Shown: positions 8,813 to 31,520, counted from the first letter of the stretch. The stretch is DNA of 32,000 nt from Desulfotalea psychrophila LSv54 (GCF_000025945.1 NC_006138.1:2250001-2282000), one strand, 5' to 3'. Program-made: numbers and translations. Notes: a model not told the origin generated them from the letters alone.

Positions 8813-8857
8813 TATTTTTGCCTTGGAACTCCGGACAAGAAAACACCTACGAATAAA

Positions 8858-12517: not shown

Positions 12518-12593
12518 GCCAACATAGCTCAGTTGGTAGAGCGACGCTCTCGTAAAGCGTAGGCCAGCGGTTCGATCCCGCTTGTTGGCTCCA
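12518..12593 (+). tRNA. tRNA-Thr (anticodon CGU), CCA encoded
   Basis: Hand-folded cloverleaf. Acceptor GCCAACA/TGTTGGC, D arm GCTC-AGTTGGTA-GAGC, anticodon arm ACGCT-CTCGTAA-AGCGT (anticodon CGT), variable AGGCC, T arm AGCGG-TTCGATC-CCGCT, discriminator T, CCA. Total 76 nt. Confidence 0.9.
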
Positions 12594-12601
12594 AGAAATT
12601 C

Positions 12602-12645
12602 AAGGGTTTAGAGGATAATTTCTCTAAACCCTTTTTTGTTTTAAA
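12602..12645 (+). terminator. Rho-independent terminator after tRNA-Thr
   Basis: Perfect 12-bp stem AAGGGTTTAGAG (12602-12613) / CTCTAAACCCTT (12622-12633) with an 8-nt loop, followed by TTTTGTTTT. Confidence 0.8.
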
Positions 12646-12650
12646 AACGG

Positions 12651-12670
12651 TGGGACGGTGATGGGACGGT
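12651..12670. repeat. Direct repeat TGGGACGGT x2 with 11-nt periodicity
   Basis: TGGGACGGT occurs at 12651-12659 and 12662-12670. The repeats sit in the 152-nt gap between the tRNA terminator and the stop of the giant phage gene. Confidence 0.6.
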
Positions 12671-12797
12671 AAATAAGATGACTTTTTGTTCTTTGCCGTG
12701 AAATTATGTGAAGAGAATTTTTTCATTTTATTTTTCCCTTTATCGTTTTTGAAGTGCCCTACTTCTTTTTCACCTGTCAAATTTACCGCACGATCAT

Positions 12798-15700
12798 CTA
12801 CTCATTAGACCGAGACCGTTCAAGCTTGGTTGCCCTCTGGGCTCTTTTCAAAACTAATCTAATCTGACGACCAGGATTTATCGGTCGAATGTCAACCCGA
12901 CCAATACCGTGGGCAAGTTCGTTGTATCGACTTATCTCTTTAAAAAGTTCTGCAGGAGTACCCTTTTGGTACAGGTAGATCTTTTTGATAAGGCTGTTTA
13001 TCTCAGTTCGTCGCTCTTGCATTCGTTTTGCTACTTTCTTTTCGTGCCACTGCTTTTCTCGGATTCCAGAAATGCGGGCAGGGTTAAAAGAAAAAAAGCG
13101 AACCGTCGCATCAAATCCATCGGCTTTTAAAGGTTCTGTACCATAGTAGACGGGACTGTAGGAGCCGGTTGTCACCCCTTCAGCCGCTTCACGAACAGCT
13201 TTTGACATAGAGCCAAAGGCAGTGGGCAACATAGCCTCTGCACCCTTTGAGAGTTCCCCTCTGCCAAGGTGTTTGATGCCTCGGGCTGTATCTGTAAAAA
13301 TAGCCCCGGGAGCGCCGAAGACTTCGGCAAGAGTTCTCGGCATAGGATTGTTTAACTGCAAAGAACCCTTAAGATTCACACCAGCAAGGCCTGCAAGTCC
13401 ATGGCGTAAGAATCTTTCACCACCAAAGGTTCTTTCGGCCCAGGTGTAGAACCTTTCTTCGGGATCATCTCCATCGGCAAACCCAAGGGCCCCGGCAAAG
13501 GCTGCAAGTACGGGAGTTGCAAGTGAAGCACCAGCTCCGGCAAGTACTGCAGGAGATAAAAGCATATACGCGGACTCTTTTATATTCCCTTTAAGACCTA
13601 AGTCTATCATATTAAGTGCATAATTATGAGAGAATTTCTGAAAAGTGTATAAAAGCTTTGCAGGATTGTAGGATCCTCTCGTCCAGGCAGGCATGGTTGC
13701 TTTACCGTAAATCCCATGAGCGCTATCACTTATACTCTTTGCCTTATGCATTGCCTCTTCTCGGGAGAGACTTGTCTGCTCTAATAATTTTTTGTAGGCA
13801 GCATAGATACTTACCGCCCGATTGGTTTTTTCCACAGCGCCAAAAAGTTTCATGGCATACTCGTTAAAAATTTGCCATCGTCGCCCTACTTTGGATTGCA
13901 ATACCGAGGCGTTTTCTTGATTAAACTGGGCTTCATCCCAGCCTCTTGCAGAGATATCTAAAAAGATTTGCCTCTCTTTATCGCTTAATAATCTCTTTTC
14001 CCCGGGCGCTTTTCTGCTATCTCGCAAATATTTACCATAGTCCACGGGCGCTCGGCGGATAACCGACAATGCTTTTGATAACCCGCAACCCGTTTCAGCA
14101 GAGATAATTGCAGGCACAGCCTGAACCATGTTTGTGGCGTTAACGGCGGCTGAACTCACCCTAAAGCCAAGAAACTTAATAACGGCAAGTCCCTTCAAGG
14201 TTCCCATGACTCGATCTACTTGCTCTTCGTTTCGCAGAACTTCCCTCATCCAGGAGATGGCCTCCCCATAAAGATTTTTCTGCCTGGTAGGATTCAAACG
14301 CCTTTTCTCCACAAATTTGCTATAGGCCTCCCAACTTTTATCAGCACTTCTTCCATTCTTGAATTCAGTAAAAGAGATATCGCGACCAGCGAGGGCCTCT
14401 ATCATTTTTCTGGCGGCATTTTTCTTGGCAAATCCTGCTGACAAGCCTCGAGCATATTGGGTACCAGCCAAAAGCATATCCTCTTCAAAACCTTTTACAT
14501 ATTTTGTTGAACGAGCGATACGGCTGGACAAATAACCTCGACCCTTGAAAATTTCTGCAAGATTCATACTGAGAAGTTTATTTATCTCTTGGGAGATTGC
14601 GGGAGTATCGTTGATACCGCCTTTGGTAACCGCCTCTTGAAGTAGAGCGTCAAGGGAAGAGACAAGTTGCATGGCATCAAAAACAGATTCTGGGGTGGAT
14701 TGATCTTTTTTTGCCTCAACGTGGTACCCGCGCTTTTTCAAATTCCGTCCATCTTTCTCCAACGTTTCGACGAAGGGAAGAAATCCTGTTGCAGTATTAA
14801 AAAGTTTTTTGATAAACCAGGAGGCGGATCGCCCCTGCTTAATTTCACCCGTTTCATTGTTGAGGGCATAGGAGTCCACTGCATAAAAATCATACTTCTT
14901 CATAATTGAGGGCTGTCCCTCTTTGGTTGCCCAAAGAATTACGCCACCAGACTGTCTCTGTCTTGGGAAATATGCTCCACGCAGATCACCCATTTCAGCA
15001 ATCAGCTCGGCTAGCGACATCTCTTTACGAATTTCATTATCCCTTTGTCTCTTGAGTTGGTGATGTCGAGTGCCGGCAGCTTGAGCTACCACTTTGTCGC
15101 CGAATTCGGCAACTCTCTTACCATTCTTATAGAGGGCCCAGCGACGTGACTCATCCACCAACGCTACCGTTGGTTCATCAAGGCCAGCCTCATTGGCTCG
15201 GGAAAGTATTTTTCTTAGATCTGCAACCATCCAATCAAAGGCGCGGTTGGTCATCTTGCGAAAGGAACTAATCAGTAATCGAGAATTTTCTGATAATTTC
15301 TGCACTCTTGGTGATTTCTGTTCAAATTCTATTATTGCGGCATTGGCACTTGCCTCCTCTGTAAAAACTTCCAAGAGAACGCCTTTAGGATCCATAACAT
15401 GAAATCGTTCGGATTTTTCCGTGTTATAATTAGGACGAACCTTGTCCTTATATTTACCACGAGCCTGCTGCTCTTTTAGATGTTTTGCGGAGAGTTCATA
15501 CGCCTGCAGCTGGGTATCAGTATACCCTAAAACCGTATCATCGGGAGTCTTCACTAGCCAGGCCATCTGTCTCTTCACCTTGAAAGAGTTACCACTTTGA
15601 TCAACATCGAGCAGATAGTTATTTGCCTGTTCATAGGTAGCGTTATCTTCTTTTTTCGCTTTTTGAAAGGTGGTGACAAAATCCTGTAGAATATCCTCTT

Positions 15701-18700
15701 CCATGGAAAATTTTTCATCCCGGCGTTCCAACTGAGCCATAAACATTCGGCTCGTCGCCCCTGACTTTTTAAAAAACTTCTCAGGAGCCGAAAGTATCTT
15801 TTCCATGAAGTTCATATCAGCAGGAGATGGCTTGTTCTTTATCTGATCAATCTTCTCGAGATAACCTTTGCCGGTCTCAGTCACGCTGTCATGGAAGTAT
15901 TTTTCACCAGGTTCCTGCTCTTTATCTATTTTGGCATGGGAATATCTGATGGCGTCATTATTGTTTTTCTTCTGATTAGTTCGCAATGCGGCCCCGGCCA
16001 TGGCTTTGAGGTCGGCAGCGGTTAATGAATTAACAAATTCAGCACCTAAAAATCTTATGAGAAGTGCTTTTACCCTGGCCAGGAAACGACGTACTAGGCC
16101 AATTTGCGCTGTATCTTCAACAAGATAGGCAATGACTTCCTCGGCATAATGTTCAAGCGGAGTATCCTTAGGTACCCTGTTTATCGCCTTGCGAATAGCT
16201 GCACCCGTTGGGGTGTTGCTGTTTTTACGTCGTAATACGGATCTCTTGAGGGTTTGAAACTCTTTGTCCGCAAGAAGGAGATGGTTAAGGTGCACCCCCA
16301 CCTCATGGTGCAGCACATCCTGTCCTTTACCTTGAGCAATGCTGTCAGCTACCAAGTATGTTTTGTTGGCAACGGTAAAGCCCTGGATAAAGCCATTTTG
16401 GGAATAGAAGATATCAATCTTTGTCTTTAGGGGGGTGGGATTCGTTCGAACAGAATAATACGGTTCACCTTGCAGACCGGCGATAATTTCTTGAGCTTCT
16501 TTTTGAGTGCTAAGAATAGAAAGGGTGCCGGTACGGATCATCCGGGAAATGGTGCTCCGGCCAACGGCTTTGTTGAGTTCTGCTTGAAGGGTAGCGGGGG
16601 TTAACCCACTATTTTGATATTCGGATTCCGCTCTTGTAGACGTTTTTTGGCGTAAATCGCTTTCTCCTTTAATAAGCGCATTTCTGAGGGATTCAACAGA
16701 ACCGTATTTGAGGACATAGTTGCCTTCTGAGTTGGTGAGGGCTTCGATGGTTCCTGAGATATCGAATTGTTGGAGGACGGTTTCGAGTTTTTCACGACCG
16801 AATTTCCTTATAAGTTGGTTAATGGTAGTTTCTTTTATCCCTACTATAGTGCCTCCTTGCACCGAAGCAAGGGAAGAGATGGCCACAACCTCACCACCGT
16901 TGTTCGCTATATAGTGCCGCAGTTCATGAATTGTACCTCCTTGGGTAAGCATATCATCCAGGATAATATATTTGCCACCCTTAACCACTGGCCCCTTAAA
17001 TAGCTTCCTGGCGAGGATACGGCTAGAACCTTTTAACCGCCTCCTTTTGGTCTTGCTTATCTGGTGAATAGAAAGTTGCGCTGAAAGCCCTGCCTTACCA
17101 AACTGATCCGCCATTGCGACGGGAATAAAGTTAACCCCCTCTTCCTCTAGTTCATGCACCGGCACCACTATGGCATCGGGATATTTTGCCGCCAACTCCT
17201 TAATTTTAGCCGGTTTCATTAGGCTCTCTACCAATCGAACCGCCGCGTCAAAATCACCAGCCTTGGCCGCCTTAAAATCGGGGTGACTTCGCAGGGTGCT
17301 CGGATTGGTATGAACCGTGGCTTTTTCAAGGGTTTGTGGCCACGGGGTAACACTTGACCTGGAATAGAGAAGGGTGCCCTTCTCAGTCTCTTTGCTCTTG
17401 AGAGTCTTAAAGAGATCGGTGAAGGCAGGGCCGACCGTCTTCAACTCATCTTCCTTCAGGTAGGGATAGGAATCAGGCTCCTTGCTGTCCCCCTCCCTGA
17501 TTGAGTTGGCCAGCTTTGCCAACAGATTTTCCATATAAACATCGGAGGTTACAATATTGGCCAGATAGTCATTGAGATAGCCCTTGGCTCTGTTCTGTTC
17601 GATGATATAGCTCTCAAAACTCCGGGCACTCATCTCTATCTCAGTACCCCAATATTTTTTCGTCCTCTTCTTATCCAGTTCAGCGGATCTTTCATAAAGC
17701 TTTGTCCCATTAATCTTTGCCATTAGATTATTGAAGGCGGCAACAACCTCCGTCCTGACCTTCTCGCCTCCATTGTTCTTCCCGGCAAAGACTTCGGCTG
17801 TCATATAGTACCCCCCCCTCTCAGCACCGGCATCCCTGGCCCCAAAATGGTTATCCAGGGCGTGCCACCACTCATGGGCCAAACTCCCGGCCCCGCTTTT
17901 TCGGGTCAGGTTAATAACAACCTTGCCGGGCTCATAGTGGGCCATAGCAGCATTTTTGCCGCCAGATCCCCGGGCACCAAAGGCCAGACTAAGTTCACCA
18001 TTAAGAGAGATCGCCCTGGGCGGGATACCAAGCAGGTTGGCCAAATCGTATAAACCATCAAAGGCATTGTTCAGGGCCATCTGTCTTTCACCGCTGGCCT
18101 TAACCCAATTGCCAAACTCCACTCCCTTGAAATTAAAGGCCTCCTGAAACATCTCTGGGCTAACATCCTTACCCTGCCGGTGATTCTCCCCTATCCGTTC
18201 CTCATTTGATTTACGGCGATGGTCAGGGGTATATTTACGAAGCTCCAACTCTTTAACCAACTCGTCGTAGTGTTCCTTTAAATATGTCCGGGCCTCGGCA
18301 GCATTGGGAAAACTCTTGAGGTCGAGATGTGACCCACCAACCTTCTTTCCAATCCAGATATTTTTCGGATCGGTTCGATAGTTATAGACGGTGAACTTAA
18401 CCTTTTTATCCACTGCCTTTTTCTCTCCCAAGGCTTTATAAACCGGCACAAAGTTGGCCAGTGCTTTTTCTTTTGTCTCACCGTCAGCAAGAGTCTTGAA
18501 ATTGGAATATACGTTGGCAGGGGCTTTTTGCTGAATCATCCACATATCAACGTTTTCCCGGCCCTTATAGAGACTCCAATGGATTTTGCTGAAGGTGATA
18601 CCCTTAAGAGATCTTTCATGGCCGTGAATCTCATAAAGCTCTGCCCGGCCAGCTATCTCCTGTGGCATGGCATCCCAAAAATCTTCTGTTATAAGCCCCT

Positions 18701-21700
18701 GGCCTGCCTCTGTTCTGAGAAGTTCAATCGCCAACTGGCGCAAAGACTCAACAGCCTTAACATACTCCTCCATCTTGTATTTCGAGCGACCGCCAGGTTT
18801 AGCAGGCACTTCATCACGGATAGACCGTACCGTGGCCACAATTTTAGGGCTGAACCCATCGGCCAGAAGCTTTTTATAATTGGGTGCGGGGAAGGCTTTG
18901 GAAAGAGGGACGGTGGCAGTATCAAGATGTTCTGCATCGGTCAGACTTCTTGTATAGAGATCTTTCTTGGCCCCGCCGATCTTCTCCCCAAAATCCTCTA
19001 TCTTCTCCTCTTTACCCTTCGGTGTGGATTTTGCAGCAGGCTTTGCAGACTCTTTTTTCTTGGCTTTTGCCTTTGCAGGGGATGTATCTTTACCTCCTTC
19101 AAGGGGAATAGGGTGCAAGCTGCCATCTCTGGCAGAAAGTTCCAGGCCTGATACCATAGAGGTTTTTCCCGAAAGAGAGATATCCCCCACATATTTTTCC
19201 CCTTCACCTTTTTGTAGATAGGCGATGGTTGCATGGGGCTGATAATCAGGAAAAGTTTCTCCTGGGAAAGAGGCCAGTTTACCCGCCTTCTCATTTGCAC
19301 CCACAAGACCGGCACTCTTTATCTCCACCTTCAATACATCGTATTTATCCGTTTCAAAAATAGAGACACGGCCAAGCTCAACGGAGAATGGCCCCAGGGT
19401 AGATAGCTCTTGCAACTCTTTTGTATCGTCGGCTTTAAGCCCATATCTTACCGTGATATGTGGGGCTGTCTCCCGCCCATAGCTAGGGTCTTTGGGATCT
19501 GTATAAAGCTCCTCCTCCGGGATTTTTTCACCGAAGGCAATAATATCCTTTGCTATAGGGCCGGGTAGAGAGGTCTGGATACTGGCGTAGCTGCTTTTAT
19601 GGGTCGGATCCTCCTTCTGTGGTTCCACCTGTGGAACCATTTCTGGGGTAGTAACCCGACCGGGAAACTCCTCTCGTTCATGTTTGGCCGGGTCGATGGT
19701 CGCCATTTCAGGCTTCTCTATAACTTGCTGGAATCCTTGTCGATCATACTTAATTGGATCAACCCTTGCCTGTTCAGGTTTCTCTACAGCCTGGGGAAAC
19801 TCTTTTCGCTCATGTGGGGCAGGTTTGACGTTTACCTTACCATTGGTCTTTACGGCCACTGCCGGGACGGTATCAAATTCATCAACTTCCAGAACCGAAC
19901 CCATGGCATTTCTGCCCTCGATAAGAAGTCTGTTTGTCTCGGGATCTCGGCCCCGGTGGACAAAAACTTCAGGGACACCATTTTGCATAGAGACAAATTG
20001 GTCGCCCTCCTTCAAATCACCGACAACAAGATCCCTTTCATCGGTAAGCTGAAACCCCTCCTGTTCTAACCTGTCAAACTGCACCGATTGAGCGACCATA
20101 GGATTTTTTGCATTGTATTCCTCGGCCACCGTCTTCAGGTATTCCCACCGTTCAAGCTGGGCATGGGTAAGGGGCTTGCCGCTACGAATCTTGCTCAAAA
20201 CCCTGTTAAATGTTTCCTGGCCCAATCTTACTTTTGTGCCATTTTTCTTATTGTACTCACCAACAATCTGCTGCTTAAACCATGGTGGGTAGGAAGATCC
20301 TGCTTCAACATCAGTACCGTCCTGAAGGCTCTTGTTTCTGCTAACATGCCCCCCTTTAACCTCCTGTTCCATCTCGTCAAGGGCGCGAAGATACTGTTGG
20401 TTTTCTATTTCTACCAGGGGATAATCGTTCCCCTCCCTCGTCGCTGAAATCATTTGAGGATTAGAAGCTCTCCCAGGAAAATCTTTCCGCTCCCATCCCT
20501 TCTCTCCACTAAAGGCCACCGCCATATCTACGGCCCTACGCGCATGCTGTTCGGGAGGGTTACGGGCCACACTCTTCTCAGGAGAAAGATGATTCTCTAA
20601 CTCAGCGGAGAAGGCAGCAATTGAATCCTGGCGAGGATGGGACGCAACACCCTCTGTCTGATAACGGGTATCCAGCCCAACGGCTCCCCGGTCAGAAAGA
20701 GAGGTGACATATTCCAATGCCCTCTGCTGTCTCCGGGTAAGACTCTGCCCATTTTTTACCTTACTGATAACAATATCCAGAAGAGGGCCGTTACCGGCAA
20801 GAGTACCGAGCTTTTTGCCGGTTTCCTGCTCATATTTTTTGATATTGTTTTTATCAAGGGCAGCAGAGCGCAGAGATTCAAGCTCCACACTGAATGGTTC
20901 GTTTGGCATCGGGAAGGCTACCTGCTCCCCGGGGGCCACCGGCTCTTTTTCCTCACCGGCAGCCAGGGTCTTACCAATCATGCCACTTGCCCCAATTTTT
21001 TCGGTTACCTCACCGGCGTAGCCGATTCCGGCAAACTTGGCATCAATATCAATGGGTAAACCCTGTGTTACCATCTCCTGGGCATGGTCAAGCCATGCAG
21101 CCGCCGCCGCCCGATCCTTCTCTTCCAGGGCGTTATAAATGGCATTAGCAGCCCCGGCCCTCTCAGCGGGGTCGGTCCCCGGATCTGCCAGGGCATCTTT
21201 TATCTTCTTATTTTGTCTGTCAGAATATTTTTCCGGGAGAACAGCATTAACCGAGCCAAACAGCCCACCACCTACCGCCCCTGCCGCCGCGCTGTTGATA
21301 TACTCCTTGATTGCCTCCTTATCAGTAAGCGAGACAGAGGGGTCATTATATTTTTCATTGAGTTTAGAGAGAAACGCCTGCAAAGTCTCCTGCACAGCTT
21401 CACCGGCCATCGACGCGGGGGTATGAGTAAGCAACCTGCCCTTAACCGTTTTCTGCAAACCGCCAAGAAAATTATCAGCAACTTCCCGGATCGCCTTACT
21501 ACCAGCACCCGTGGCCCCGGTAAGTCGTTTTAACAGAAATGCGCCGGGAGAAAGTAGTTCAGAGGCACCGGAGAGAAGACCGAAACCACCGGCTGAGAAG
21601 GGATTGGCCTTATCAATACCGTGTTTATTGGCCTCCTGGCCATACATTCCACCGCCCTCTAAAGCACCCATACCCATGGTCGTACCAAGGTTAAAACCAA

Positions 21701-22388
21701 TCTTCTTACCACGGGCGATAATGGCCTTTTCCGCCGCCTCCTCTGCAACCTCCCTAACCACCCCATTTTTTACCTGGGCCTCAATCGCCTCACGGATAAT
21801 TTTTTTACCAAGGGCAGGGGCAATTGCAGCACCGGCACCAACACCAGTGAGAGTACCGGCGATTGCCGTGGCCATGGTAGGAAAAAGTCTGCCCAATTGA
21901 CCTGTCACATAATCAAAGGTATCTTCTGCCACCCCGTGATTCTTGCCGATATCAAGAAAATTCTCGGTATCAAGAGGGTTTTCCGCAGCCTCTTCTTCAT
22001 TACGCTGAAACCCTTCATAGCCCCAATTACGAACATCTTTTAAAAATCCATCATTCCCGCCATTAAAAGTTTTGTTGATCGCGTCGGCAGCTAAAGCCGT
22101 GGCACCATAAATAGACCCCTGGGTTTGATCTACCCCCGACAGAAGACCACGCTCGAGGTTTGACCCTTCGGGAGCCTGTTGCTCAAGGGGAAGTTGTTCA
22201 ACAAGTTCAGGTTCCGGGGGAGCTTCCCAATCAGGATCATTAAACGAAAATTTCTCTGCTCTTTCCGGAGAGAGAAGGGTATTAACCTGCTCTTTTTTCC
22301 GGGCTTGCAACTCTTCTGCGCTAGGAACATTAAAATCAAGCTCTGCTTCAAGTAAATCTTCTGGGAATCCGATATTATTATCTGCCAT
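12798..22388 (-). CDS. Giant polyvalent protein (3196 aa): 2H phosphoesterase + zincin + PRTase + second zincin + hydrophobic C-terminal region; probable virion-packaged/injected protein
   Basis: A single uninterrupted 9.6-kb ORF. AAGGA lies 8 nt upstream of the ATG at 22388. Domain motifs are listed as separate features. The KIEDFGEKIGGAKKD linker motif and the multi-enzyme architecture match what I recall of polyvalent proteins of phages/ICEs. Confidence 0.85.
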   Translation of the reverse strand: MADNNIGFPEDLLEAELDFNVPSAEELQARKKEQVNTLLSPERAEKFSFNDPDWEAPPEPELVEQLPLEQQAPEGSNLERGLLSGVDQTQGSIYGATALAADAINKTFNGGNDGFLKDVRNWGYEGFQRNEEEAAENPLDTENFLDIGKNHGVAEDTFDYVTGQLGRLFPTMATAIAGTLTGVGAGAAIAPALGKKIIREAIEAQVKNGVVREVAEEAAEKAIIARGKKIGFNLGTTMGMGALEGGGMYGQEANKHGIDKANPFSAGGFGLLSGASELLSPGAFLLKRLTGATGAGSKAIREVADNFLGGLQKTVKGRLLTHTPASMAGEAVQETLQAFLSKLNEKYNDPSVSLTDKEAIKEYINSAAAGAVGGGLFGSVNAVLPEKYSDRQNKKIKDALADPGTDPAERAGAANAIYNALEEKDRAAAAAWLDHAQEMVTQGLPIDIDAKFAGIGYAGEVTEKIGASGMIGKTLAAGEEKEPVAPGEQVAFPMPNEPFSVELESLRSAALDKNNIKKYEQETGKKLGTLAGNGPLLDIVISKVKNGQSLTRRQQRALEYVTSLSDRGAVGLDTRYQTEGVASHPRQDSIAAFSAELENHLSPEKSVARNPPEQHARRAVDMAVAFSGEKGWERKDFPGRASNPQMISATREGNDYPLVEIENQQYLRALDEMEQEVKGGHVSRNKSLQDGTDVEAGSSYPPWFKQQIVGEYNKKNGTKVRLGQETFNRVLSKIRSGKPLTHAQLERWEYLKTVAEEYNAKNPMVAQSVQFDRLEQEGFQLTDERDLVVGDLKEGDQFVSMQNGVPEVFVHRGRDPETNRLLIEGRNAMGSVLEVDEFDTVPAVAVKTNGKVNVKPAPHERKEFPQAVEKPEQARVDPIKYDRQGFQQVIEKPEMATIDPAKHEREEFPGRVTTPEMVPQVEPQKEDPTHKSSYASIQTSLPGPIAKDIIAFGEKIPEEELYTDPKDPSYGRETAPHITVRYGLKADDTKELQELSTLGPFSVELGRVSIFETDKYDVLKVEIKSAGLVGANEKAGKLASFPGETFPDYQPHATIAYLQKGEGEKYVGDISLSGKTSMVSGLELSARDGSLHPIPLEGGKDTSPAKAKAKKKESAKPAAKSTPKGKEEKIEDFGEKIGGAKKDLYTRSLTDAEHLDTATVPLSKAFPAPNYKKLLADGFSPKIVATVRSIRDEVPAKPGGRSKYKMEEYVKAVESLRQLAIELLRTEAGQGLITEDFWDAMPQEIAGRAELYEIHGHERSLKGITFSKIHWSLYKGRENVDMWMIQQKAPANVYSNFKTLADGETKEKALANFVPVYKALGEKKAVDKKVKFTVYNYRTDPKNIWIGKKVGGSHLDLKSFPNAAEARTYLKEHYDELVKELELRKYTPDHRRKSNEERIGENHRQGKDVSPEMFQEAFNFKGVEFGNWVKASGERQMALNNAFDGLYDLANLLGIPPRAISLNGELSLAFGARGSGGKNAAMAHYEPGKVVINLTRKSGAGSLAHEWWHALDNHFGARDAGAERGGYYMTAEVFAGKNNGGEKVRTEVVAAFNNLMAKINGTKLYERSAELDKKRTKKYWGTEIEMSARSFESYIIEQNRAKGYLNDYLANIVTSDVYMENLLAKLANSIREGDSKEPDSYPYLKEDELKTVGPAFTDLFKTLKSKETEKGTLLYSRSSVTPWPQTLEKATVHTNPSTLRSHPDFKAAKAGDFDAAVRLVESLMKPAKIKELAAKYPDAIVVPVHELEEEGVNFIPVAMADQFGKAGLSAQLSIHQISKTKRRRLKGSSRILARKLFKGPVVKGGKYIILDDMLTQGGTIHELRHYIANNGGEVVAISSLASVQGGTIVGIKETTINQLIRKFGREKLETVLQQFDISGTIEALTNSEGNYVLKYGSVESLRNALIKGESDLRQKTSTRAESEYQNSGLTPATLQAELNKAVGRSTISRMIRTGTLSILSTQKEAQEIIAGLQGEPYYSVRTNPTPLKTKIDIFYSQNGFIQGFTVANKTYLVADSIAQGKGQDVLHHEVGVHLNHLLLADKEFQTLKRSVLRRKNSNTPTGAAIRKAINRVPKDTPLEHYAEEVIAYLVEDTAQIGLVRRFLARVKALLIRFLGAEFVNSLTAADLKAMAGAALRTNQKKNNNDAIRYSHAKIDKEQEPGEKYFHDSVTETGKGYLEKIDQIKNKPSPADMNFMEKILSAPEKFFKKSGATSRMFMAQLERRDEKFSMEEDILQDFVTTFQKAKKEDNATYEQANNYLLDVDQSGNSFKVKRQMAWLVKTPDDTVLGYTDTQLQAYELSAKHLKEQQARGKYKDKVRPNYNTEKSERFHVMDPKGVLLEVFTEEASANAAIIEFEQKSPRVQKLSENSRLLISSFRKMTNRAFDWMVADLRKILSRANEAGLDEPTVALVDESRRWALYKNGKRVAEFGDKVVAQAAGTRHHQLKRQRDNEIRKEMSLAELIAEMGDLRGAYFPRQRQSGGVILWATKEGQPSIMKKYDFYAVDSYALNNETGEIKQGRSASWFIKKLFNTATGFLPFVETLEKDGRNLKKRGYHVEAKKDQSTPESVFDAMQLVSSLDALLQEAVTKGGINDTPAISQEINKLLSMNLAEIFKGRGYLSSRIARSTKYVKGFEEDMLLAGTQYARGLSAGFAKKNAARKMIEALAGRDISFTEFKNGRSADKSWEAYSKFVEKRRLNPTRQKNLYGEAISWMREVLRNEEQVDRVMGTLKGLAVIKFLGFRVSSAAVNATNMVQAVPAIISAETGCGLSKALSVIRRAPVDYGKYLRDSRKAPGEKRLLSDKERQIFLDISARGWDEAQFNQENASVLQSKVGRRWQIFNEYAMKLFGAVEKTNRAVSIYAAYKKLLEQTSLSREEAMHKAKSISDSAHGIYGKATMPAWTRGSYNPAKLLYTFQKFSHNYALNMIDLGLKGNIKESAYMLLSPAVLAGAGASLATPVLAAFAGALGFADGDDPEERFYTWAERTFGGERFLRHGLAGLAGVNLKGSLQLNNPMPRTLAEVFGAPGAIFTDTARGIKHLGRGELSKGAEAMLPTAFGSMSKAVREAAEGVTTGSYSPVYYGTEPLKADGFDATVRFFSFNPARISGIREKQWHEKKVAKRMQERRTEINSLIKKIYLYQKGTPAELFKEISRYNELAHGIGRVDIRPINPGRQIRLVLKRAQRATKLERSRSNE
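16060..16436 (-). other. Zincin-like module 2 of the giant protein (HEVGVH)
   Basis: DVLHHEVGVHLNHLL (HExxH at aa 2028-2032, first His codon at 16307-16305) with downstream EHYAEEVIAYLVED. Only the motif is seen. The fold is not verified. Confidence 0.45.
16780..17290 (-). other. Type-I phosphoribosyltransferase (ComF-like) module of the giant protein
   Basis: PRPP-binding loop signature GGKYIILDDMLTQGGTIHEL (Asp1811-Asp1812, nt 16958-16953), preceded by RRLKGSSRILARKLFKGPV as in ComF/GntX-type PRTases. Confidence 0.7.
17604..18125 (-). other. Zincin-like metallopeptidase module 1 of the giant protein (HEWWH)
   Basis: GVEFGNWV...LAFGARGSGGKNAAMAHYEPGKVVINLTRKSGAGSLAHEWWHALDNH (HExxH at aa 1505-1509, nt 17876-17862), with a downstream acidic helix TEIEMSARSFESYI as a possible third ligand. 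Confidence 0.65.
19100..19570 (-). other. 2H phosphoesterase (LigT/cyclic-nucleotide phosphodiesterase-like) domain of the giant protein
   Basis: Two HxT motifs lie 75 aa apart: APHITVRYGL (His977, codon at 19460-19458) and QPHATIAYL (His1052, codon at 19235-19233). Confidence 0.75.
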
Positions 22389-22566: not shown

Positions 22567-23844
22567 CTATTTCTGTGGTCGCTTCAACCCTGCTATCGGA
22601 ATTTCTTCTGCCATACCGTTTTTTACTCCGATAAGACGCTCTCCCGGCTGTCCATTTGCATCTGTATACTCCTGCATCGTAATTTTTTCATAATTTGCAG
22701 AGTTATCAGTACCTAAAAGAAAACTGAGCTTTTTCTGAATTGCTTTCTTTTTGCCCGCATTTTTCTCTTCAAGAAATTGTTTTTGCAGAAGCATCGCAGT
22801 AGATAACTGCTCATTTGATAAACCTCTTGAAGTAGCTAAAGCATCGTTGGCAGCAAAAGAACCCTGTGCGGTAAGGGCCCTTGTTCTGTTCAGGCCAACC
22901 CCATTTTGCCGATTGACTAGATTTGTTCGCATATTGTTCTCAGATAAAGTTTGATTTGTTCTCATATTATTCTTGCCAGTAACCCCGGTAGTCCTCACGT
23001 TATTACGCTCTGCACTAGCCAAGCTTTCCCGATTGGCCTTGTTCTGGTACAAAAGACCGTTGAGCATTTGTCGCTCTTTCCATGGCATATTAGGATGAGT
23101 TTTACGGGTAAAAAGTTTTTCCTTCTCTTTTTGGTTCCTCTTCAACCATGAATAATTGGGAGTAATAATTTTTCCGGGGGATTGTGCTCTCTGTCTCTGC
23201 GCGGGAGCATAACCCGTTGGTCGCATAAACCTTGCCACGGTAGGGCTCATCTCGCTCCTGTTGTGCATGGTAGCTTGTCCATAGCCACCATCTTGCTGGT
23301 TAATAGTAAAAGTACGCTCTCCCTGCGCATTAACTCCACGTTGGATACTTGGCTGTCCCTCTCCTCTGCCCACTACCCCGGCAGGATTGGAGGGATTGGC
23401 GAGGTTAGCGTTCGCGGCAAGGGTCGCCTCTTGGTTCGCAGTAGTCGATGGGCCTAACTCAGCTGGTCGCTGGTTCACTACCCCGGCCACGCCTTGAGGC
23501 AATTGACCAAAATTCCGTAACCGTTGCTGCGGAGCCACCGTTGCCATGCTTGAAGGGAGAGGTGTTTGTACCCCCATCTCGTTAGCAATGCCCCTGCCCT
23601 TACTATTTATCCGGTTGAGGTTAATGTCATAGCTTTCCGCACCACGGCTATAGGCTTTGCTTATCCCGTCAACCCCCGACTGTAACGCAGTACCCCCGGT
23701 AGACATTACCGCTGGATCTATAATATCTTTCTTGATAGCACCACCCATTCGACGCGCCCCGTTGACAATACGGGCCTCGGCCCCTGTCTGCATAGCGTTT
23801 AAAGGCCGTTTTTTTCGAACATCTTCAATCGTTGCTAGAGCCAT
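22567..23844 (-). CDS. Hypothetical phage protein, Asn/Gln/Gly/Arg-rich low-complexity (possible internal virion/ejection protein)
   Basis: The start was moved to ATG 23844 (MALATIEDV), with AGGAGG 7 nt upstream. The composition is low-complexity, with repeated NN[VM]RT motifs. No enzymatic motif was recognised. Confidence 0.6.
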   Translation of the reverse strand: MALATIEDVRKKRPLNAMQTGAEARIVNGARRMGGAIKKDIIDPAVMSTGGTALQSGVDGISKAYSRGAESYDINLNRINSKGRGIANEMGVQTPLPSSMATVAPQQRLRNFGQLPQGVAGVVNQRPAELGPSTTANQEATLAANANLANPSNPAGVVGRGEGQPSIQRGVNAQGERTFTINQQDGGYGQATMHNRSEMSPTVARFMRPTGYAPAQRQRAQSPGKIITPNYSWLKRNQKEKEKLFTRKTHPNMPWKERQMLNGLLYQNKANRESLASAERNNVRTTGVTGKNNMRTNQTLSENNMRTNLVNRQNGVGLNRTRALTAQGSFAANDALATSRGLSNEQLSTAMLLQKQFLEEKNAGKKKAIQKKLSFLLGTDNSANYEKITMQEYTDANGQPGERLIGVKNGMAEEIPIAGLKRPQK

Positions 23845-23878
23845 TGTGCCCCTCCTTATTGTTTCATAATTACGCAAT

Positions 23879-25438
23879 TTACGTTGGTGACTGATTAAAT
23901 TTTGAATTATATGCACCAATGCTTATATCAGAAACATGCTTGCCAGGATAAAGCGCAGGTATCTCTGTTTCTATAATAGCAAGCAATTTTGCTTGAAATC
24001 CTGGCACATCGTTGTGCGAAATCAAATCTTCACAAGCTGAACGAGTAGCTAAAAATTCATATGGATAAACCAAACCGCCAGTAGGAGAGACATTCAGCCA
24101 CACCTTGTCAGGATCTCTTATATACCTGTTCGATATACGAGCCTCTACCTGTAGATCGCCCCTTATAATTGTAACTTCTGACGTTTTAGTTTGTTCATCT
24201 TTTGTAATAAATTCCGTGTAGCTACTCGGTGCCCAAATAATTTTACAGATAAAACCAACACCCACCGCCAATGCACCAGAAACATAAGAATCAGGTACTT
24301 CAGTCCTGATATAATAACCAATATCATCATTATATTCAGTATAGTGAGGAATCCCATTATCAAGATTGGTTTTCTCAAAGGTGGTTTCGTAACGAGAAGA
24401 AAAAGACCTTTCTGACATATAGCTATTAACGCTTATTGTTCTAATCGTCTTTGTAGTCCAACGAGTATAATCATCGCTGTACCAACCATCTCGCGTTGTT
24501 ATTAGTGTATTCCCGGGCACAACCGTTAAAACATCGGCTGGCGCGTTGTTATATGTCACAACACTATCTTTTGTAACAGTGTAATCAAGTCGTGAATATT
24601 CAAAATGCCAATGATCCCGTGGAAACCAAATACAATCACCCGCTGGAATAAATTTGTTTTGATTTAAGGTTGTTATAGAAGAATTGTAGGCATAACCGGC
24701 AGGGTCAATTGAAACACTTGTTCCAGAGAAGATCACACGCTCCTGAAGACTATCAGTACCATAATTATTATCTAATTCTATCTGTTTAGAGAATAACCTT
24801 TTGTTAGAACCAGCTATATAATAGTCTTCCCATACAATTTCATCTACAGAGAGAAACATATCATTTGTAGGGTCGTAATAATAATTAACCCTAATAGGGA
24901 AGTTGTCTTTTTGGCTCAGATCAAATATGATTATAAAAATCTCAATCGCAGGTTTTAAGCATGTCTTCGTTTTTATGGGTAACGTTTCCTCTTGGTCTGT
25001 ACCGGGAGATACCACATAATAAAAGCTACTAATTCCATCGTCATAATAAACACATTGAGCGTAAACCTTATCTTCAAAAGCCATCTTTCCTGTCTCGTTA
25101 AGCAACTCAAGACGGTTAAGATATCTTTGCCCTTCCCCTGTCTTTGTTTGAAGCCACAACACAAAAAATTCACAATGATAAAGAACAGGCATCTGTTGAA
25201 GGTTAACACCCACCATCTGTTCTACAGTTAAACCAAACTGCTCCAAAGCCCTTATGGTGCCACTCTTCTCCGGGTCAGAACTTCTGTCTACCAGAACAGT
25301 AAAAAGGGTGAGCTTGTTCACATCAAAGCTTTCCGGAGCAACGGTAAATCCTTGATCTTCGGCAAGTTCAGGATCAAGAATAGAAAAATATGTATTGGTA
25401 TCTATTATCATCTGCAAGGCCTGTTTTTGAAAACCCAT
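23879..25438 (-). CDS. Hypothetical phage protein, Tyr/Asn/Thr/Asp-rich, AT-rich gene (tail fibre/receptor-binding candidate)
   Basis: 519-aa ORF. An alternative start at ATG 25411 forms an ATGA overlap with the upstream stop. The composition is beta-rich and no motif was recognised. Confidence 0.55.
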   Translation of the reverse strand: MGFQKQALQMIIDTNTYFSILDPELAEDQGFTVAPESFDVNKLTLFTVLVDRSSDPEKSGTIRALEQFGLTVEQMVGVNLQQMPVLYHCEFFVLWLQTKTGEGQRYLNRLELLNETGKMAFEDKVYAQCVYYDDGISSFYYVVSPGTDQEETLPIKTKTCLKPAIEIFIIIFDLSQKDNFPIRVNYYYDPTNDMFLSVDEIVWEDYYIAGSNKRLFSKQIELDNNYGTDSLQERVIFSGTSVSIDPAGYAYNSSITTLNQNKFIPAGDCIWFPRDHWHFEYSRLDYTVTKDSVVTYNNAPADVLTVVPGNTLITTRDGWYSDDYTRWTTKTIRTISVNSYMSERSFSSRYETTFEKTNLDNGIPHYTEYNDDIGYYIRTEVPDSYVSGALAVGVGFICKIIWAPSSYTEFITKDEQTKTSEVTIIRGDLQVEARISNRYIRDPDKVWLNVSPTGGLVYPYEFLATRSACEDLISHNDVPGFQAKLLAIIETEIPALYPGKHVSDISIGAYNSKFNQSPT

Positions 25439-26109
25439 TCAGGAATTTTTTCAAATAAGGGAAGCACCTTATACAGAGGTGCTATTCTCGAAGACATATA
25501 GTCCTTATCCCGCTTAGGCTTATCGGCACTATCGGGCGCAGCCACGGGCTCGGTGCCCATCTGTTCCGGGTCAAAGCCAAAAAGAAGAACCAACCCACAT
25601 TTTATATATCCAGGGTTTTCCTCCGATCCCGCCCCCGCCTCTTCATCTGAAATTATATTAATAAAATCCGTAATCATACATTTTTCGTAGGAAACATATT
25701 TATATCCGACACAAGGGACGCTGCTTTTATTGCAGACTTCCAAGTTATAGCGCACGTTATCCCCCTCGTAACCCATCGGGGTGTCCAGGGAATAATCGTA
25801 TTTTGAAACAATGCGACATACAGCAAAATTGACATTGGCAAAACATTCATCGCAGAGACATGGTTTACCTCCCCCCACGCCTTTCATTGGCACCCATATA
25901 TCCGCATAGGACAGCCCATATCTGATATAAGTACGGATATGAGTCCCGTCAGCAAAATGAAAATTACGTTCTCCCGTGGGAAGTTTCTGGAAAGACATGC
26001 TGGTGTTGAGCATATCCAACTGCCTCCGGGCAAAACCCATAAGTGATTTTCCCGCAGCAATATTACCGCTAACTTGAAACCGCGTTGGAATGGGAGGTAG
26101 ATAAAACAC
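25408..26109 (-). CDS. Hypothetical phage protein (Cys-rich, 233 aa)
   Basis: GTG start 2 nt after the upstream stop. Cys cluster KPCLCDECFANVNFAVC...VCNKSSVPC...EKC. Coding is supported by operon packing only. Confidence 0.5.
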   Translation of the reverse strand: MFYLPPIPTRFQVSGNIAAGKSLMGFARRQLDMLNTSMSFQKLPTGERNFHFADGTHIRTYIRYGLSYADIWVPMKGVGGGKPCLCDECFANVNFAVCRIVSKYDYSLDTPMGYEGDNVRYNLEVCNKSSVPCVGYKYVSYEKCMITDFINIISDEEAGAGSEENPGYIKCGLVLLFGFDPEQMGTEPVAAPDSADKPKRDKDYMSSRIAPLYKVLPLFEKIPEWVFKNRPCR

Positions 26110-26111
26110 GA

Positions 26112-27467
26112 TTAAGTCACCGGTTCTTCGTAAGAATGGGATTCACTCAGACTTCCACCATAGCTCCATGTTTCACCTTTACGCTCAGAACCCTGATATC
26201 CATGAGAGATAGAGGTGTTCACCGCGCCAAGGGCAGAGGCCAGAGATTGAGCTGAAACACTGGCAACAGCCTCACCAATCCTCTCTGCTAAAGACTCTTT
26301 ATTCATATAGGCCTGTAGATTAATTTTTTCATTCTCAATGGCCTGAGTTACTTTCAGTTTAGAAGCCTCTAACCCCATTTTGGCCTCTTCAATAAGCATT
26401 TGATACTGTTTTGATACTGCATCAATCTCAGCAGTATAAATAGTTATTTCTGATTGGCGAACATCAACGAGCCCCCTGTTCTTGCTAGTGATAGACTCAA
26501 TTTTAGATTTGTAAACTTCGGCCTGTCCTAAATATATCCTTACAAGACCATCGTTATATTCGGTAATTCCCTTGATCTTAGAGACAAGTGCCTCCAAACT
26601 AATTTTTATCCCCTCCCACTGAGCCAGATATAATTTTACATTCTGCTCATAGGCTCGGAGAAGGTAGTCCGTTGTCGCTTTCTGGATCTCGACATTGCGT
26701 CCCTCCCTGTTTTCAAAAGCTTCTCGTAAAAGCTGTTCAAGCTGTGTTCCCGTAGTGATTGCAAACTTCTTATAATCAAAAGCCATCTCAAAATCTTTAA
26801 TGGTGATGGTGTTGAGCGCATCTTGATCGCGTTTCATTATCTCGGCAGAGAAATTAATTTGCATAGCAGCAACTTGCCCGGAGGGGAGTTCAAAACCCCT
26901 ACTTCCCACTGCGTCCAGGGTTTTTCTGTACTCCCTGTCTTGGCTTAATCTTCTGCTCTCCTGCTCACGTTGAACCATGGCAAGATGGGTAGCATCGGAA
27001 AGGCCTGGCCCCTCCTCTAAAATAGCCGCATGTACCTTAGAAAAAAGAGCTTGCCACATTTCTGAGGTATATTCATGCTGGGTATAATCAAAACTTACAT
27101 CCACCTTGCTGGGAGGAACAGGAGCAATAAAAGAAAAATCTATATCACCCAATTCTTCAAAAACTGGTGGGTCGCCTATGTCAGCAGGAAAGCTATCGTC
27201 CAAAACCAAAGCCGGAAAATTTGGCATGGGGGGATATTCAGGGGCATCTATGCCGGGAATATTCACATTCACAATACTGGTTGCCGGGTCATATTCTCCT
27301 AATGCAGTTTCCAAATTGAGCAGAGCCGTATCCACCTTTGTCTTCATTGCATCAGCATAGGCGGTGGTACTGTCTATAATGTCGGTGATCTCTGTATACA
27401 TGCTTGTCGGGTTCACACTAGCCGCAGGCAGATTTATTTTCTCCGCCCCTGAAATTGCAAGAGTCAT
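26112..27467 (-). CDS. Hypothetical phage protein with long coiled-coil-like C-terminal half (451 aa)
   Basis: ATG with GGAGA 9 nt upstream, starting 2 nt after the upstream stop. The C-terminal half has heptad-like, Glu/Lys/Ala/Ile-rich sequence. Confidence 0.6.
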   Translation of the reverse strand: MTLAISGAEKINLPAASVNPTSMYTEITDIIDSTTAYADAMKTKVDTALLNLETALGEYDPATSIVNVNIPGIDAPEYPPMPNFPALVLDDSFPADIGDPPVFEELGDIDFSFIAPVPPSKVDVSFDYTQHEYTSEMWQALFSKVHAAILEEGPGLSDATHLAMVQREQESRRLSQDREYRKTLDAVGSRGFELPSGQVAAMQINFSAEIMKRDQDALNTITIKDFEMAFDYKKFAITTGTQLEQLLREAFENREGRNVEIQKATTDYLLRAYEQNVKLYLAQWEGIKISLEALVSKIKGITEYNDGLVRIYLGQAEVYKSKIESITSKNRGLVDVRQSEITIYTAEIDAVSKQYQMLIEEAKMGLEASKLKVTQAIENEKINLQAYMNKESLAERIGEAVASVSAQSLASALGAVNTSISHGYQGSERKGETWSYGGSLSESHSYEEPVT

Positions 27468-27469
27468 AG

Positions 27470-28702
27470 CTATTGTCTCCTTCTGCTAAACTTTGATATC
27501 ATTATACTTAAATCAATTTGCTCTATCTCGAAACACGCACAAGAAACAACTTTTAGAGTCATATATCTACCTACAAGACCTTTGCCTACCTTGACACGAA
27601 CCTCACACATTCCCTCATTTTTCACCTCAAAAGGATAACTATGCCATTGTCCATTTCTATCTGCCATAACCAACAATTCATAATCACCGATACCCTGTAA
27701 TCTCAGATATGCGCTGTTTATAGATTTCTGGTTTTTGTTTCCAAAATCGGTTGTTGCAAAAGCAAAACATTTTTCCTTGCCTGATTTTATGGATTTTTCC
27801 AAATTATACAGTCCGTCAAAACCGGCAATATATGTCTGGTCAGCAACGGCAAGTATACTGCGAGTCTGTAATGAGTTCTCGCTAACAGCCTTACTCCCCA
27901 CCTCACCAACAGCTCCTTGAACATGCATACCACCTTCCGCTCCACCAAGAATAATCTCGGTCTTTCCACGGACGGTTAGTGAGTTGTACTCTTTTTTAAG
28001 CTCATATCTTTTATTGGTAAGATTAAAAACAGAACCACTTGGAAGCCCTAGAAACACTCCTTCAGGAGTAGCAAACAGCAACGACATTTGAGATGTTTCA
28101 AAACCAAAAAGCATAGGGTCTACAAGGTGAGAGCTATTTGCCCATTCAAAAGCAGGGAAATTAAGAATTTTTCGATGGCTCCATGTATCCGGATTTGTAC
28201 CGCCCACGAAATAAACGGCTGTCTCATCTGAAACAAAAAAACCTTCGCCTACAGAGCGAACCATCCGCACCCTAGAACCATAGCGAAGACGATTTTTTAC
28301 CATATCGACCACACCGGGAAGACCATGTTCAGAGAAGATAACTTCTTGCCCTACAGCAAAAAGAATACGCCCTGCAATACTATCTATATGAGTTGCAATA
28401 GGCGCAGGGTAAAAGCTAGATTTAGCATCTGGCCCAGGCCAAGTTTGGGATACCCAAGGGGAACTGGTAAAGACTATTTCTGCAGGAATCTCAGCACGGG
28501 CCACAGAAAAAGACTCGAAAATTAAAATACAATCGGACACGCCTTTAATTACTACAGGAGTATCTACTTTCACCGCACAGTTAAAGCCAAGGCCTATGGT
28601 GGCCTCTGCTAGTGCATGGGTGACAGCTGGCAACACCCGTACCTCTGTGTTAAAACTGAGGCCAAACATTGTAGCAGATTTTATATACTGACTATTTGCC
28701 AT
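27470..28702 (-). CDS. Hypothetical phage structural protein (410 aa)
   Basis: ATG with AAGGG about 10 nt upstream. Beta-rich sequence with no motif recognised. Confidence 0.6.
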   Translation of the reverse strand: MANSQYIKSATMFGLSFNTEVRVLPAVTHALAEATIGLGFNCAVKVDTPVVIKGVSDCILIFESFSVARAEIPAEIVFTSSPWVSQTWPGPDAKSSFYPAPIATHIDSIAGRILFAVGQEVIFSEHGLPGVVDMVKNRLRYGSRVRMVRSVGEGFFVSDETAVYFVGGTNPDTWSHRKILNFPAFEWANSSHLVDPMLFGFETSQMSLLFATPEGVFLGLPSGSVFNLTNKRYELKKEYNSLTVRGKTEIILGGAEGGMHVQGAVGEVGSKAVSENSLQTRSILAVADQTYIAGFDGLYNLEKSIKSGKEKCFAFATTDFGNKNQKSINSAYLRLQGIGDYELLVMADRNGQWHSYPFEVKNEGMCEVRVKVGKGLVGRYMTLKVVSCACFEIEQIDLSIMISKFSRRRQ

Positions 28703-28740
28703 TTTATGTGCCCTTAACGTAAGGCCTACAGCCTGTTTTG

Positions 28741-30573: not shown

Positions 30574-30632
30574 GATATTTACCTTTTAAAATTATCGTAA
30601 AACATATTAATCTATCCCTAACCCCTCGCTAC

Positions 30633-31082: not shown

Positions 31083-31100
31083 TATATAATCCCTCTGTTG

Positions 31101-31502: not shown

Positions 31503-31520
31503 ATTCTTTCCCCATAACGA

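Follow-up and report, generated by a model that had tools for sequence, protein, structure and literature searches.

The window analysed here, a 32,000-nucleotide stretch of Desulfotalea psychrophila LSv54 DNA (NC_006138.1:2250001-2282000; all positions below are counted from its first nucleotide), carries on its minus strand a single 9.6 kb open reading frame (ORF) at 12798-22388, whose translation gives a giant protein of 3196 amino acids (aa) that is identical to the database protein DP1991 (P0005; CAG36720.1, WP_011189232.1). Its names in NCBI and UniRef are 'LPD5 domain-containing' and 'Large polyvalent protein-associated domain-containing protein', and it joins several effector or LPD domains in one giant polypeptide, as polyvalent proteins do: a 2H phosphoesterase domain, LPD5, LPD1, a phosphoribosyltransferase (PRTase)-like domain, a zincin-like HEWWH motif and a PLxRFG C-terminal domain. 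The 2H domain is the subject of this report. It occupies 19089-19645 on the minus strand (aa ~915-1100, ~180 aa), and the part of it that was modelled and scanned against Pfam is aa 925-1100 (19089-19616). The first catalytic motif, H977-I-T979 (PHITVRYGL, at 19452-19460 with the H977 codon at 19458-19460), stands within ETAPHITVRYGL, and the second, H1052-A-T1054 (PHATIAYL, at 19227-19235 with the H1052 codon at 19233-19235), stands within YQPHATIAYL, both on the minus strand. An initial annotation of this DNA had reported these two motifs 75 aa apart, with this numbering, and translation bears out all of it, the separation being exactly 75 residues; the span that it gave for the module, 19100-19570 (aa ~940-1097), takes in the domain except for the first beta-strand, which starts at aa ~935. 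Seven H-x-[ST] triplets occur in the 3196 aa, and these two are the only ones in an H-x-T-hydrophobic-x-Y context. The spacing lies within the normal 2H range (70 in Acb1 of Erwinia phage FBB1, 73 in PDE-9 and 82 in Escherichia coli ThpR).

The isolated domain passes the Pfam threshold for PF13563 (2_5_RNA_ligase2, the '2'-5' RNA ligase superfamily') with 31.6 bits against a cut-off of 27, and scores 25.3 bits, just under that cut-off, when it is scanned inside the full 3196-aa protein; PF13563 matches 49 of 49 family members, and the LigT_PEase family scores 18.2 bits on the isolated domain, below the Pfam threshold. An AlphaFold2 model built with the 49-sequence alignment has a mean pLDDT of 94.9 and a pTM of 0.87. 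When this model was compared with the PDB by Foldseek, the best 33 matches were all 2H-superfamily structures (probability 0.93-1.00), among them Usb1, the Deinococcus 2',3'-cyclic phosphodiesterase (CPDase), LigT, PDE-9, the penguinpox cyclic GMP-AMP (cGAMP) phosphodiesterase (PDE) and Acb1, and further AKAP18, rotavirus VP3 and mouse hepatitis virus ns2; the top 50 matches in the viral structure database BFVD are 2H proteins or carry 2H-type names. A PADLOC scan of the domain returned no match.

A word-indexed homologue search gave only four proteins, and an exhaustive profile search was needed to reveal the family to which this domain belongs. With a family profile built from five sequences, the exhaustive search of 1.84 billion representatives found 5470 clusters (50% identity) at E<=1e-3 and 1293 at E<=1e-30; a profile search of genome contigs with the same five-sequence alignment found five loci. 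The best 153 representatives, all less than 50% identical to one another, include 104 of more than 1000 aa, the longest of which has 5614 aa, and 28 of fewer than 350 aa. In these 153 proteins H977 is invariant, and T979, H1052 and T1054 are each kept in 152. Conservation extends to residues around the motifs: F1011 (codon 19356-19358, minus strand), the invariant aromatic of 'SIFET', is F in 153/153; in the aromatic pair just ahead of the second HxT, F1046-P-D-Y1049 (19242-19253, minus strand), position 1046 holds F, H or Y in 146/153, and the Tyr of position 1049 is kept in 152/153; Y1057 is present in all 153; and G971, R972 and E973 are kept in 151, 143 and 146, respectively. This pattern points to an active enzyme rather than a relic, and an inactive or purely structural 2H remnant is ruled out by the retention of the tetrad in at least 152 of the 153 representatives. 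Together with the triplet context, the PF13563 match, the size of the family and the confident model, it also places the motif pair far beyond chance. The initial annotation was right that a genuine 2H module with an intact tetrad lies inside a giant prophage protein, and, judged from the model and the alignments, the domain almost certainly has the 2H fold and is catalytically competent.

A BLAST coverage map of DP1991 shows that aa ~900-1100 is the only part of the protein common to 152 other proteins, so that this region behaves as a discrete, mobile (shuffled) module. A ~21-aa repeat in two copies (AVEKPEQARVDPIKYDRQGF / VIEKPEMATIDPAKHEREEF) lies just N-terminal of the domain (aa ~872-914, ~19646-19775, minus strand), and a Lys/Ala-rich stretch (AKAKAKKKESAKPAAKSTPKGKEEK) lies directly C-terminal of it; these flanking segments look like flexible linkers or possible processing sites. 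The closer relatives in IMG/VR (40-58% identity) mostly stand 600-1250 residues into ORFs of 2000-4300 aa, and the remoter ones (29-39%) are often stand-alone genes of ~190 aa, of which many lie on contigs of more than 100 kb; among the stand-alone relatives are proteins of 175-300 aa. Matches in cultivated phages are a handful (Maribacter phages, a Tunturiibacter phage and huge uncultured phages), and there is no match among 72,556 plasmids. Our best explanation of the whole is a large, phage-specific 2H clade whose members are mobile modules that have become inserted in giant virion proteins of the polyvalent kind.

The initial annotation had called the module 'LigT-type', and this label proved wrong. 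With TIGR02258, the equivalog model for LigT/ThpR, the domain scores 13.9 bits where the cut-off is 65.7 (E 0.038), and hhalign of the family against E. coli ThpR/LigT gives a probability of 2.9% (E 0.016); these two results rule out membership of the LigT/ThpR family. The association with RNA ligases or end-healing enzymes that marks that family is also not seen here, apart from one relative with a haloacid dehalogenase (HAD)-like fusion (below). Its further claim, a connection with the phage anti-CBASS (CBASS, an antiphage signalling system based on cyclic oligonucleotides) protein Acb1, to which it ascribed a 2H-like fold, holds on both counts: Acb1 does have the 2H fold (Hobbs et al. 2022, PMC9117128), and both profile searches of PDB sequences and hhalign give the Acb1 group as the nearest characterised relative. 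The top PDB match of the family profile is 9Q2G (PDE-9, whose deposition title is 'Anti-CBASS protein Acb1'), which aligns at both motifs with E 1.7e-7; it is followed by plant CPDase (1.4e-3), FBB1 Acb1 (2.9e-3) and YjcG (0.017), and neither LigT nor Usb1 was detected among PDB sequences at E<10. By hhalign the family matches a small Acb1 alignment with 96.5% (E 9.6e-10), PDE-9 with 96.2% and FBB1 Acb1 with 88.9%. Pfam Acb1 (PF23474) matches 46 of 49 family members at E<=0.01, and one relative, PDE-11, just passes its threshold with 27.6 bits. Among characterised proteins the Acb1 group (Acb1 and PDE-9) is, by these profile comparisons, the closest to the DP1991 domain, for which 'Acb1-like, but outside the curated Acb1 family' is on the same grounds the accurate description.

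The alignments extend this affinity to the active site. The first HxT aligns with H44-x-T46 of Acb1 and H50 of PDE-9 and the second with theirs, so that both motifs fall on the tetrad of T4 Acb1 (H44, T46, H113 and T115), whose role is catalytic (Hobbs 2022, PMC9117128). Four aromatics of Acb1 (Y12, W74, F107 and W147) stack on the bases of cGAMP (Hobbs 2022, PMC9117128), and two of the four have aligned counterparts: F1011 aligns with W74 of T4-type Acb1 (F74 of FBB1 Acb1), and F1046 with T4 Acb1 F107, six residues ahead of the second His. The reading that these results suggest, and that the evidence below either favours or disfavours, is that the domain is a metal-independent 2H phosphodiesterase, brought in by the virion, and that it cleaves nucleotide messengers of host immunity as Acb1 does; we judge the evidence for and against it to be about evenly balanced.

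Sequence profiles discriminate the 2H subfamilies here, and structure comparison does not. The initial annotation had proposed comparing a predicted structure with Acb1 and LigT; the model does adopt the 2H fold, but Foldseek cannot separate Acb1, Usb1, CPDase and LigT. Its first PDB matches are human and yeast Usb1 (E 3e-6, TM 0.58-0.64), and a Usb1-like enzyme would mean that an injected 2H domain attacks host RNA as an offensive effector, for example by trimming 3' ends and leaving cyclic phosphates. PBECR RNase domains found in similar architectures have been proposed to be offensive effectors. A Usb1-like RNase is, moreover, one of two options put forward for the 2H domains of polyvalent proteins by Iyer, Burroughs, Anand, de Souza and Aravind (2017, J Bacteriol, PMC5512222). 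However, sequence identity to Usb1 is just 10-12%, the family profile fails to find it (above), and, as Usb1, CPDase, PDE-9 and Acb1 differ in Foldseek E-value by no more than about one order of magnitude, their ranking is uninformative; we consider a Usb1-like RNase very improbable.

The company that the domain keeps in other proteins bears on whether it works in RNA repair. Fifteen giant homologues with the 2H module carry ART-PolyVal, Sbno-type helicase, LPD1/5/38/39, RadC, InPase, SLT, DarA_C, Eco57I-type methylase and GGDEF domains, which is the classic polyvalent-protein repertoire of counter-defence and early-function types, and neither in them nor in DP1991 is there an RNA ligase, kinase or Tpt1 domain. 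The genes beside the stand-alone relatives are capsid genes or small early-type genes, with no RNA-repair genes among them. The closest of these relatives, P0001 (L069:7001-7561, 186 aa, 46% identity), is encoded on a T4-like contig within a few kb of genes for a prohead protease (Peptidase_S77), the gp23 major capsid protein and gp13-like proteins; it adjoins a Band_7 protein gene and has no RNA-repair genes nearby. Another relative, P0004 (L071:7001-7864, 287 aa, 36-39% identity), has the 2H domain fused to an N-terminal DxDGT HAD-like domain, and this domain shows weak, non-significant similarity to polynucleotide-kinase (Pnk) 3'-phosphatase among PDB sequences (E 0.16-0.46). The P0004 fusion could serve RNA-end healing, or it could remove 3'-phosphates from cleaved messengers.

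These observations bear on a second alternative, that the domain is a delivered CPDase that processes RNA ends by opening the 2',3'-cyclic phosphate (>p) termini left by the host's metal-independent defence RNases; its targets would be tRNA or mRNA ends made by anticodon nucleases or toxin RNases, and the reaction would be a first step of RNA repair or would remove 2',3'-cyclic nucleoside monophosphates (2',3'-cNMPs). It is favoured by the best Pfam and PHROG matches, which are the generic PF13563 and phrog_755 'RNA ligase', by the presence of plant CPDase and YjcG among the next-best PDB sequence matches and of drCPDase, LigT and Arabidopsis CPDase among the top structural matches, and by the P0004 fusion, which has a parallel in phage 2H proteins fused to Pnk-like HAD domains in the list given by Doherty et al. 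(2025, bioRxiv 10.1101/2025.08.21.671373). On the other hand, the repair partners just mentioned are absent from DP1991 and its 15 giant homologues, the neighbours of the stand-alone relatives are not repair genes, the TIGR02258 and ThpR comparisons (above) place the domain away from LigT, and Iyer et al. (2017, PMC5512222) never saw the polyvalent 2H version associated with RNA ligases. A delivered RNA-end-processing CPDase is in our estimate unlikely.

The rest of DP1991 is made of modules that recur in other giant phage proteins. Downstream of the 2H domain in the polypeptide, an LPD5 and CLCA_X-like region occupies 17574-18554 (minus strand, aa 1279-1605); LPD5 itself (aa 1279-1417) matches Pfam with E 6.7e-43, and the CLCA_X region scores 146 bits in NCBIfam, under the 260-bit cut-off. 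The region holds an HEWWH zincin-type motif at aa 1505 and is a candidate self-processing metallopeptidase of the kind proposed for polyvalent proteins; the LPD5/CLCA_X-like module is also 45% identical to a Bacillus phage Dartukuta protein that is annotated as a methyltransferase. An LPD1 domain follows at 17391-17678 (minus strand, aa 1571-1666; Pfam LPD1 E 1.4e-15), and then a PRTase-like domain at 16806-17084 (minus strand, aa ~1769-1861), which is below threshold both in Pfam (Pribosyltran, 19.4 bits against a cut-off of 26.3) and in several weak NCBIfam PRTase matches, and which contains the phosphoribosyl-pyrophosphate (PRPP)-loop motif ILDDMLTQGGT. Iyer et al. (2017, PMC5512222) count the PRTase among the domains typical of phage polyvalent proteins and call its role there 'enigmatic'; with the 2H module it makes two nucleotide-directed domains within DP1991. 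The C-terminal 'tail-700' PLxRFG domain (12828-14504, minus strand, aa 2629-3187) scores 107.8 bits against NCBIfam NF032893, above the 100-bit cut-off, and has just two weak matches in cultivated phages, both in Pseudomonas phage. At the other end, the N-terminal ~870 aa (19646-22388, minus strand) have no Pfam, PHROG or NCBIfam family match. Gly/Ala-rich hydrophobic segments are present in this N-terminal region (for example aa 175-193) and, by hydropathy scan, within the PLxRFG domain (aa 2943-2970), and they could be membrane-inserting parts of an ejection protein.

The presence of a PRTase-like nucleotide-metabolism domain in the same protein fits a third alternative, in which the 2H domain acts on a substrate beyond the messenger panels that have been assayed (ADP-ribose 1'',2''-cyclic phosphate (Appr>p), a compound related to glycocyclic ADP-ribose (gcADPR), or another non-canonical phosphodiester) or has mainly a binding or structural role in an ejection protein. 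Consistent with this, the family has conserved features that are absent from the aligned Acb1 sequences, namely G971-R972-E973 before motif 1, Q938, and 'AY-KKGEG-KY' after motif 2, and two groups of phage 2H PDEs were inactive on the panel of Doherty et al. (2025), which suggests natural substrates that are still unknown. But the near-invariant tetrad in divergent representatives (above) makes a structural-only role unlikely, and nothing points positively to any particular alternative substrate. We regard this third alternative as rather improbable.

The neighbourhood of the DP1991 gene is that of phage virion genes. Directly upstream of it, co-oriented phage structural genes fill 22567-31931 (minus strand), identified by Pfam and PHROG matches that include SU10_adaptor at 31521-31931 (Pfam) and the PHROG annotations 'head closure Hc3', 'virion structural protein' and 'structural protein'. 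A tRNA-Thr gene (anticodon CGT, 12518-12593, plus strand, found by ARAGORN) lies 205 nt downstream of its stop codon and is probably the integration site and end of the prophage; a listed ORF at 12529-12780 (minus strand) overlaps this tRNA and is probably spurious. The genes past the tRNA are of cellular type (an RlpA-like protein with DPBB and SPOR domains, multihaem cytochromes and an ABC transporter). With structural genes on one side and the tRNA and cellular genes on the other, the DP1991 gene is the last gene of a podovirus-like prophage at tRNA-Thr. The initial annotation's 'giant phage protein' is thereby borne out, since the gene lies within the prophage virion module, and being encoded among the late or virion genes of a prophage is itself a hallmark of polyvalent proteins. 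Just outside the prophage, 5442-11692 (plus strand) encodes a PIF1-like helicase with HRDC and HTH_40 domains, which has weak PADLOC matches to PDC-S68, PDC-M16A and DpdF, and two ORFs of 228 and 944 aa with no family match, which lie in a stretch of low GC content (38.8% at 8-10 kb and ~45% elsewhere); the region may represent a small island of defence genes or of mobile DNA.

A further link to the virion comes from a relative. The LPD5-LPD1 module of DP1991 (aa 1116-1739) is ~36% identical over ~570 aa to giant proteins of Shiga toxin (Stx)-converting podophages such as 933W, and one protein of this group, phi24B gp47 (2811 aa, with LPD5, LPD1 and LPD38), has been detected in purified virions by proteomics and is proposed to be an encapsidated ejection protein (bioRxiv 10.64898/2026.04.10.717836). 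Gene position and this homologue together suggest that DP1991 is packaged, and we consider it reasonably probable that it is delivered by the virion.

If so, the course of events would be as follows. DP1991 would be made late, packaged into the podovirus-like capsid and ejected into the cell together with the DNA, where the 2H module could act while still tethered or, following the proposal of Iyer et al. (2017), once the HEWWH zincin-like peptidase of DP1991 itself had cut it free. Strict conservation of the tetrad, with the chemistry established for Acb1 and for 2H enzymes generally, points to metal-independent acid-base catalysis by H977-x-T979 and H1052-x-T1054, in which a ribose 2'-OH would attack the adjacent phosphodiester to give a 2',3'-cyclic phosphate intermediate that would then be hydrolysed. 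The likeliest substrates would be CBASS cyclic di- or trinucleotides, cyclic oligoadenylates of type III CRISPR systems, or 2'-5'-linked oligonucleotides, and we put messenger degradation as the substrate class at slightly short of an even chance. An enzyme delivered in this way would be present before any phage gene is expressed.

Several lines of evidence support Acb1-like messenger cleavage by a virion-borne domain. Its nearest characterised relatives in the profile comparisons are phage enzymes that cleave cGAMP, and the aromatics F1011 and position 1046 probably occupy base-stacking positions of Acb1; no RNA-repair partner domains accompany the 2H module in DP1991 or its 15 giant homologues. 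The virion context (the last gene of a structural operon, the 'tail-700' domain and the phi24B gp47 homologue) is compatible with delivery, and PDE-16 offers a precedent, a 2H domain of a multidomain head-module protein for which the text of Doherty et al. (2025) reports products from 3'3'-cGAMP (below).

Other points weigh against this proposal. Pfam Acb1 scores 23.5 bits on the isolated domain and 15.5 on the full protein, short of its cut-off of 27, and the best Pfam match is the generic PF13563. The Foldseek TM values of 0.5-0.64 for Usb1, CPDase, LigT, PDE-9, the poxvirus PDE and Acb1 favour no subfamily. The Acb1 alignment spans only the ~80-residue core between the motifs, and Y12, E141, W147 and the C-terminal lid of Acb1 have no identifiable equivalents in the alignments; the lid, as Doherty et al. 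(2025) describe it, varies within the Acb1 group, being N-terminal in PDE-9 and C-terminal in Acb1. The HAD-like fusion of P0004, with its weak Pnk-phosphatase similarity, hints at RNA-end healing. Since two structural groups of phage 2H PDEs cleaved no messenger of the panel described in the text of Doherty et al. (2025), messenger activity should not be assumed for the DP1991 domain, and for its relative PDE-11, which was purified and assayed on that panel, the same preprint gives the outcome in figures only. Finally, packaging and ejection of DP1991 itself are only predicted.

To our knowledge, the phage enzymes and sponges against nucleotide signals that have been characterised experimentally (Acb1-4, Apyc1 and Tad1/2) are all made after infection starts. 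A virion-borne enzyme would act before the host alarm builds up and would alter models of the kinetics with which phages evade CBASS and type III CRISPR. The wider proposal, that the polyvalent 2H clade (thousands of clusters, phage-specific, mostly within virion proteins of 2000-5600 aa) consists of pre-packaged Acb1-type enzymes that destroy the messengers of CBASS or type III CRISPR as soon as infection begins, is speculative and in our view doubtful. If it were true, virion-delivered signal degradation, and not early-expressed Acb1, would be the commonest form of phage 2H anti-signalling, and decoy-sensing systems such as Panoptes would have a natural trigger in the 2H domain. With 5470 clusters that are almost absent from cultivated phages, the family is in any case an under-sampled reservoir of 2H phosphodiesterases, possibly with new specificities. 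At the DP1991 locus itself the gain is modest, since Iyer et al. (2017) had already published the domain type, its polyvalent placement and the anti-signalling hypothesis.

Comparison with known systems places the domain as follows. LigT/ThpR (E. coli b0147) shares the superfamily, the two HxT motifs and the overall fold with it (Foldseek TM ~0.55-0.62), but is not orthologous, has a motif spacing of 82 rather than 75, and has F and R after the motifs where DP1991 has Y. The giant proteins of phi24B (gp47) and other Stx podophages are likewise products of temperate podoviruses and have the homologous central LPD5-LPD1 module, but no 2H domain was detected in them (there is no Stx phage among the cultivated-phage matches of the 2H family).

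Two phage proteins in the survey of Doherty et al. (2025), whose text covers 75 phage 2H PDEs, 13 of them multidomain and 16 assayed, resemble the DP1991 domain in complementary ways. PDE-11 (Maribacter phage Colly_1 gp180, YP_010357429.1) is a true family member (hhalign 99.5%, E 2.4e-23; 34% identity across 149 aa that take in the KKG..KY extension), but is a stand-alone protein of 161 aa encoded within a cluster of small genes, and the preprint text puts it outside structural group 3, the group of Acb1. PDE-16 (Arthrobacter phage Kharcho gp87, L073:4918-6057) has its 2H domain in a multidomain head-module protein, together with a Peptidase_S78_2 (XkdF-like prohead protease) domain, and is encoded two genes past the portal and beside a MuF-like gene; with 3'3'-cGAMP, products and a GpA>p intermediate were seen by high-performance liquid chromatography-mass spectrometry (HPLC-MS), according to the text of the same preprint. 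It differs in its remote relation to the DP1991 family (hhalign 43%) and in being a 379-aa protein and not a giant polyvalent one. Kharcho gp87 looks head-associated, a point that the text of Doherty et al. (2025) does not make.

Acb1 (T4 gp57B and Erwinia phage FBB1; PDB 7T26/7T27), the stand-alone phage 2H enzyme that degrades CBASS nucleotide signals (Hobbs et al. 2022, PMC9117128), and PDE-9 (PDB 9Q2G/9Q2Y) from Burkholderia phage BCSR5, which the text of Doherty et al. (2025) assigns to the T4 Acb1 structural group and credits with robust 3'3'-cGAMP cleavage, share with the DP1991 domain the 2H fold, the HxT/HxT tetrad, a hydrophobic-x-Tyr after each motif, a similar spacing (70-73 versus 75) and aromatics at W74/F74 and F107. 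They are compact, stand-alone proteins of ~150-165 aa from large myoviruses and are expressed after infection, whereas the DP1991 domain is ~180 aa long, lies at aa 915-1100 within a structural-module protein of 3196 aa and has the family-specific GRE and KKGEGxKY motifs.

The closest match in kind is the polyvalent 2H described in section 20 of Iyer et al. (2017, PMC5512222), who found 2H domains in polyvalent proteins and also solo in phages and, besides the RNase option discussed above, proposed that they degrade 2'-5' oligoadenylate, cyclic or related nucleotides of host counter-invader systems. The DP1991 domain is of exactly this kind: it forms part of a giant protein whose gene lies with the virion late genes, it is accompanied by LPD5, LPD1, a PRTase-like domain and a zincin-like motif, it has solo phage counterparts, and it has no RNA-ligase association. 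It differs in that DP1991 is unnamed in the main text of that paper, which predates Acb1. Neither the 2H domain in polyvalent proteins nor the anti-signalling idea is new, and DP1991 was already annotated as polyvalent; its 2H domain is a new, unstudied member of a kind that was described and functionally predicted in 2017, to which the present analysis adds the affinity of the clade to Acb1 and PDE-9 over LigT, its size of 5470 clusters and its absence from 72,556 plasmids.

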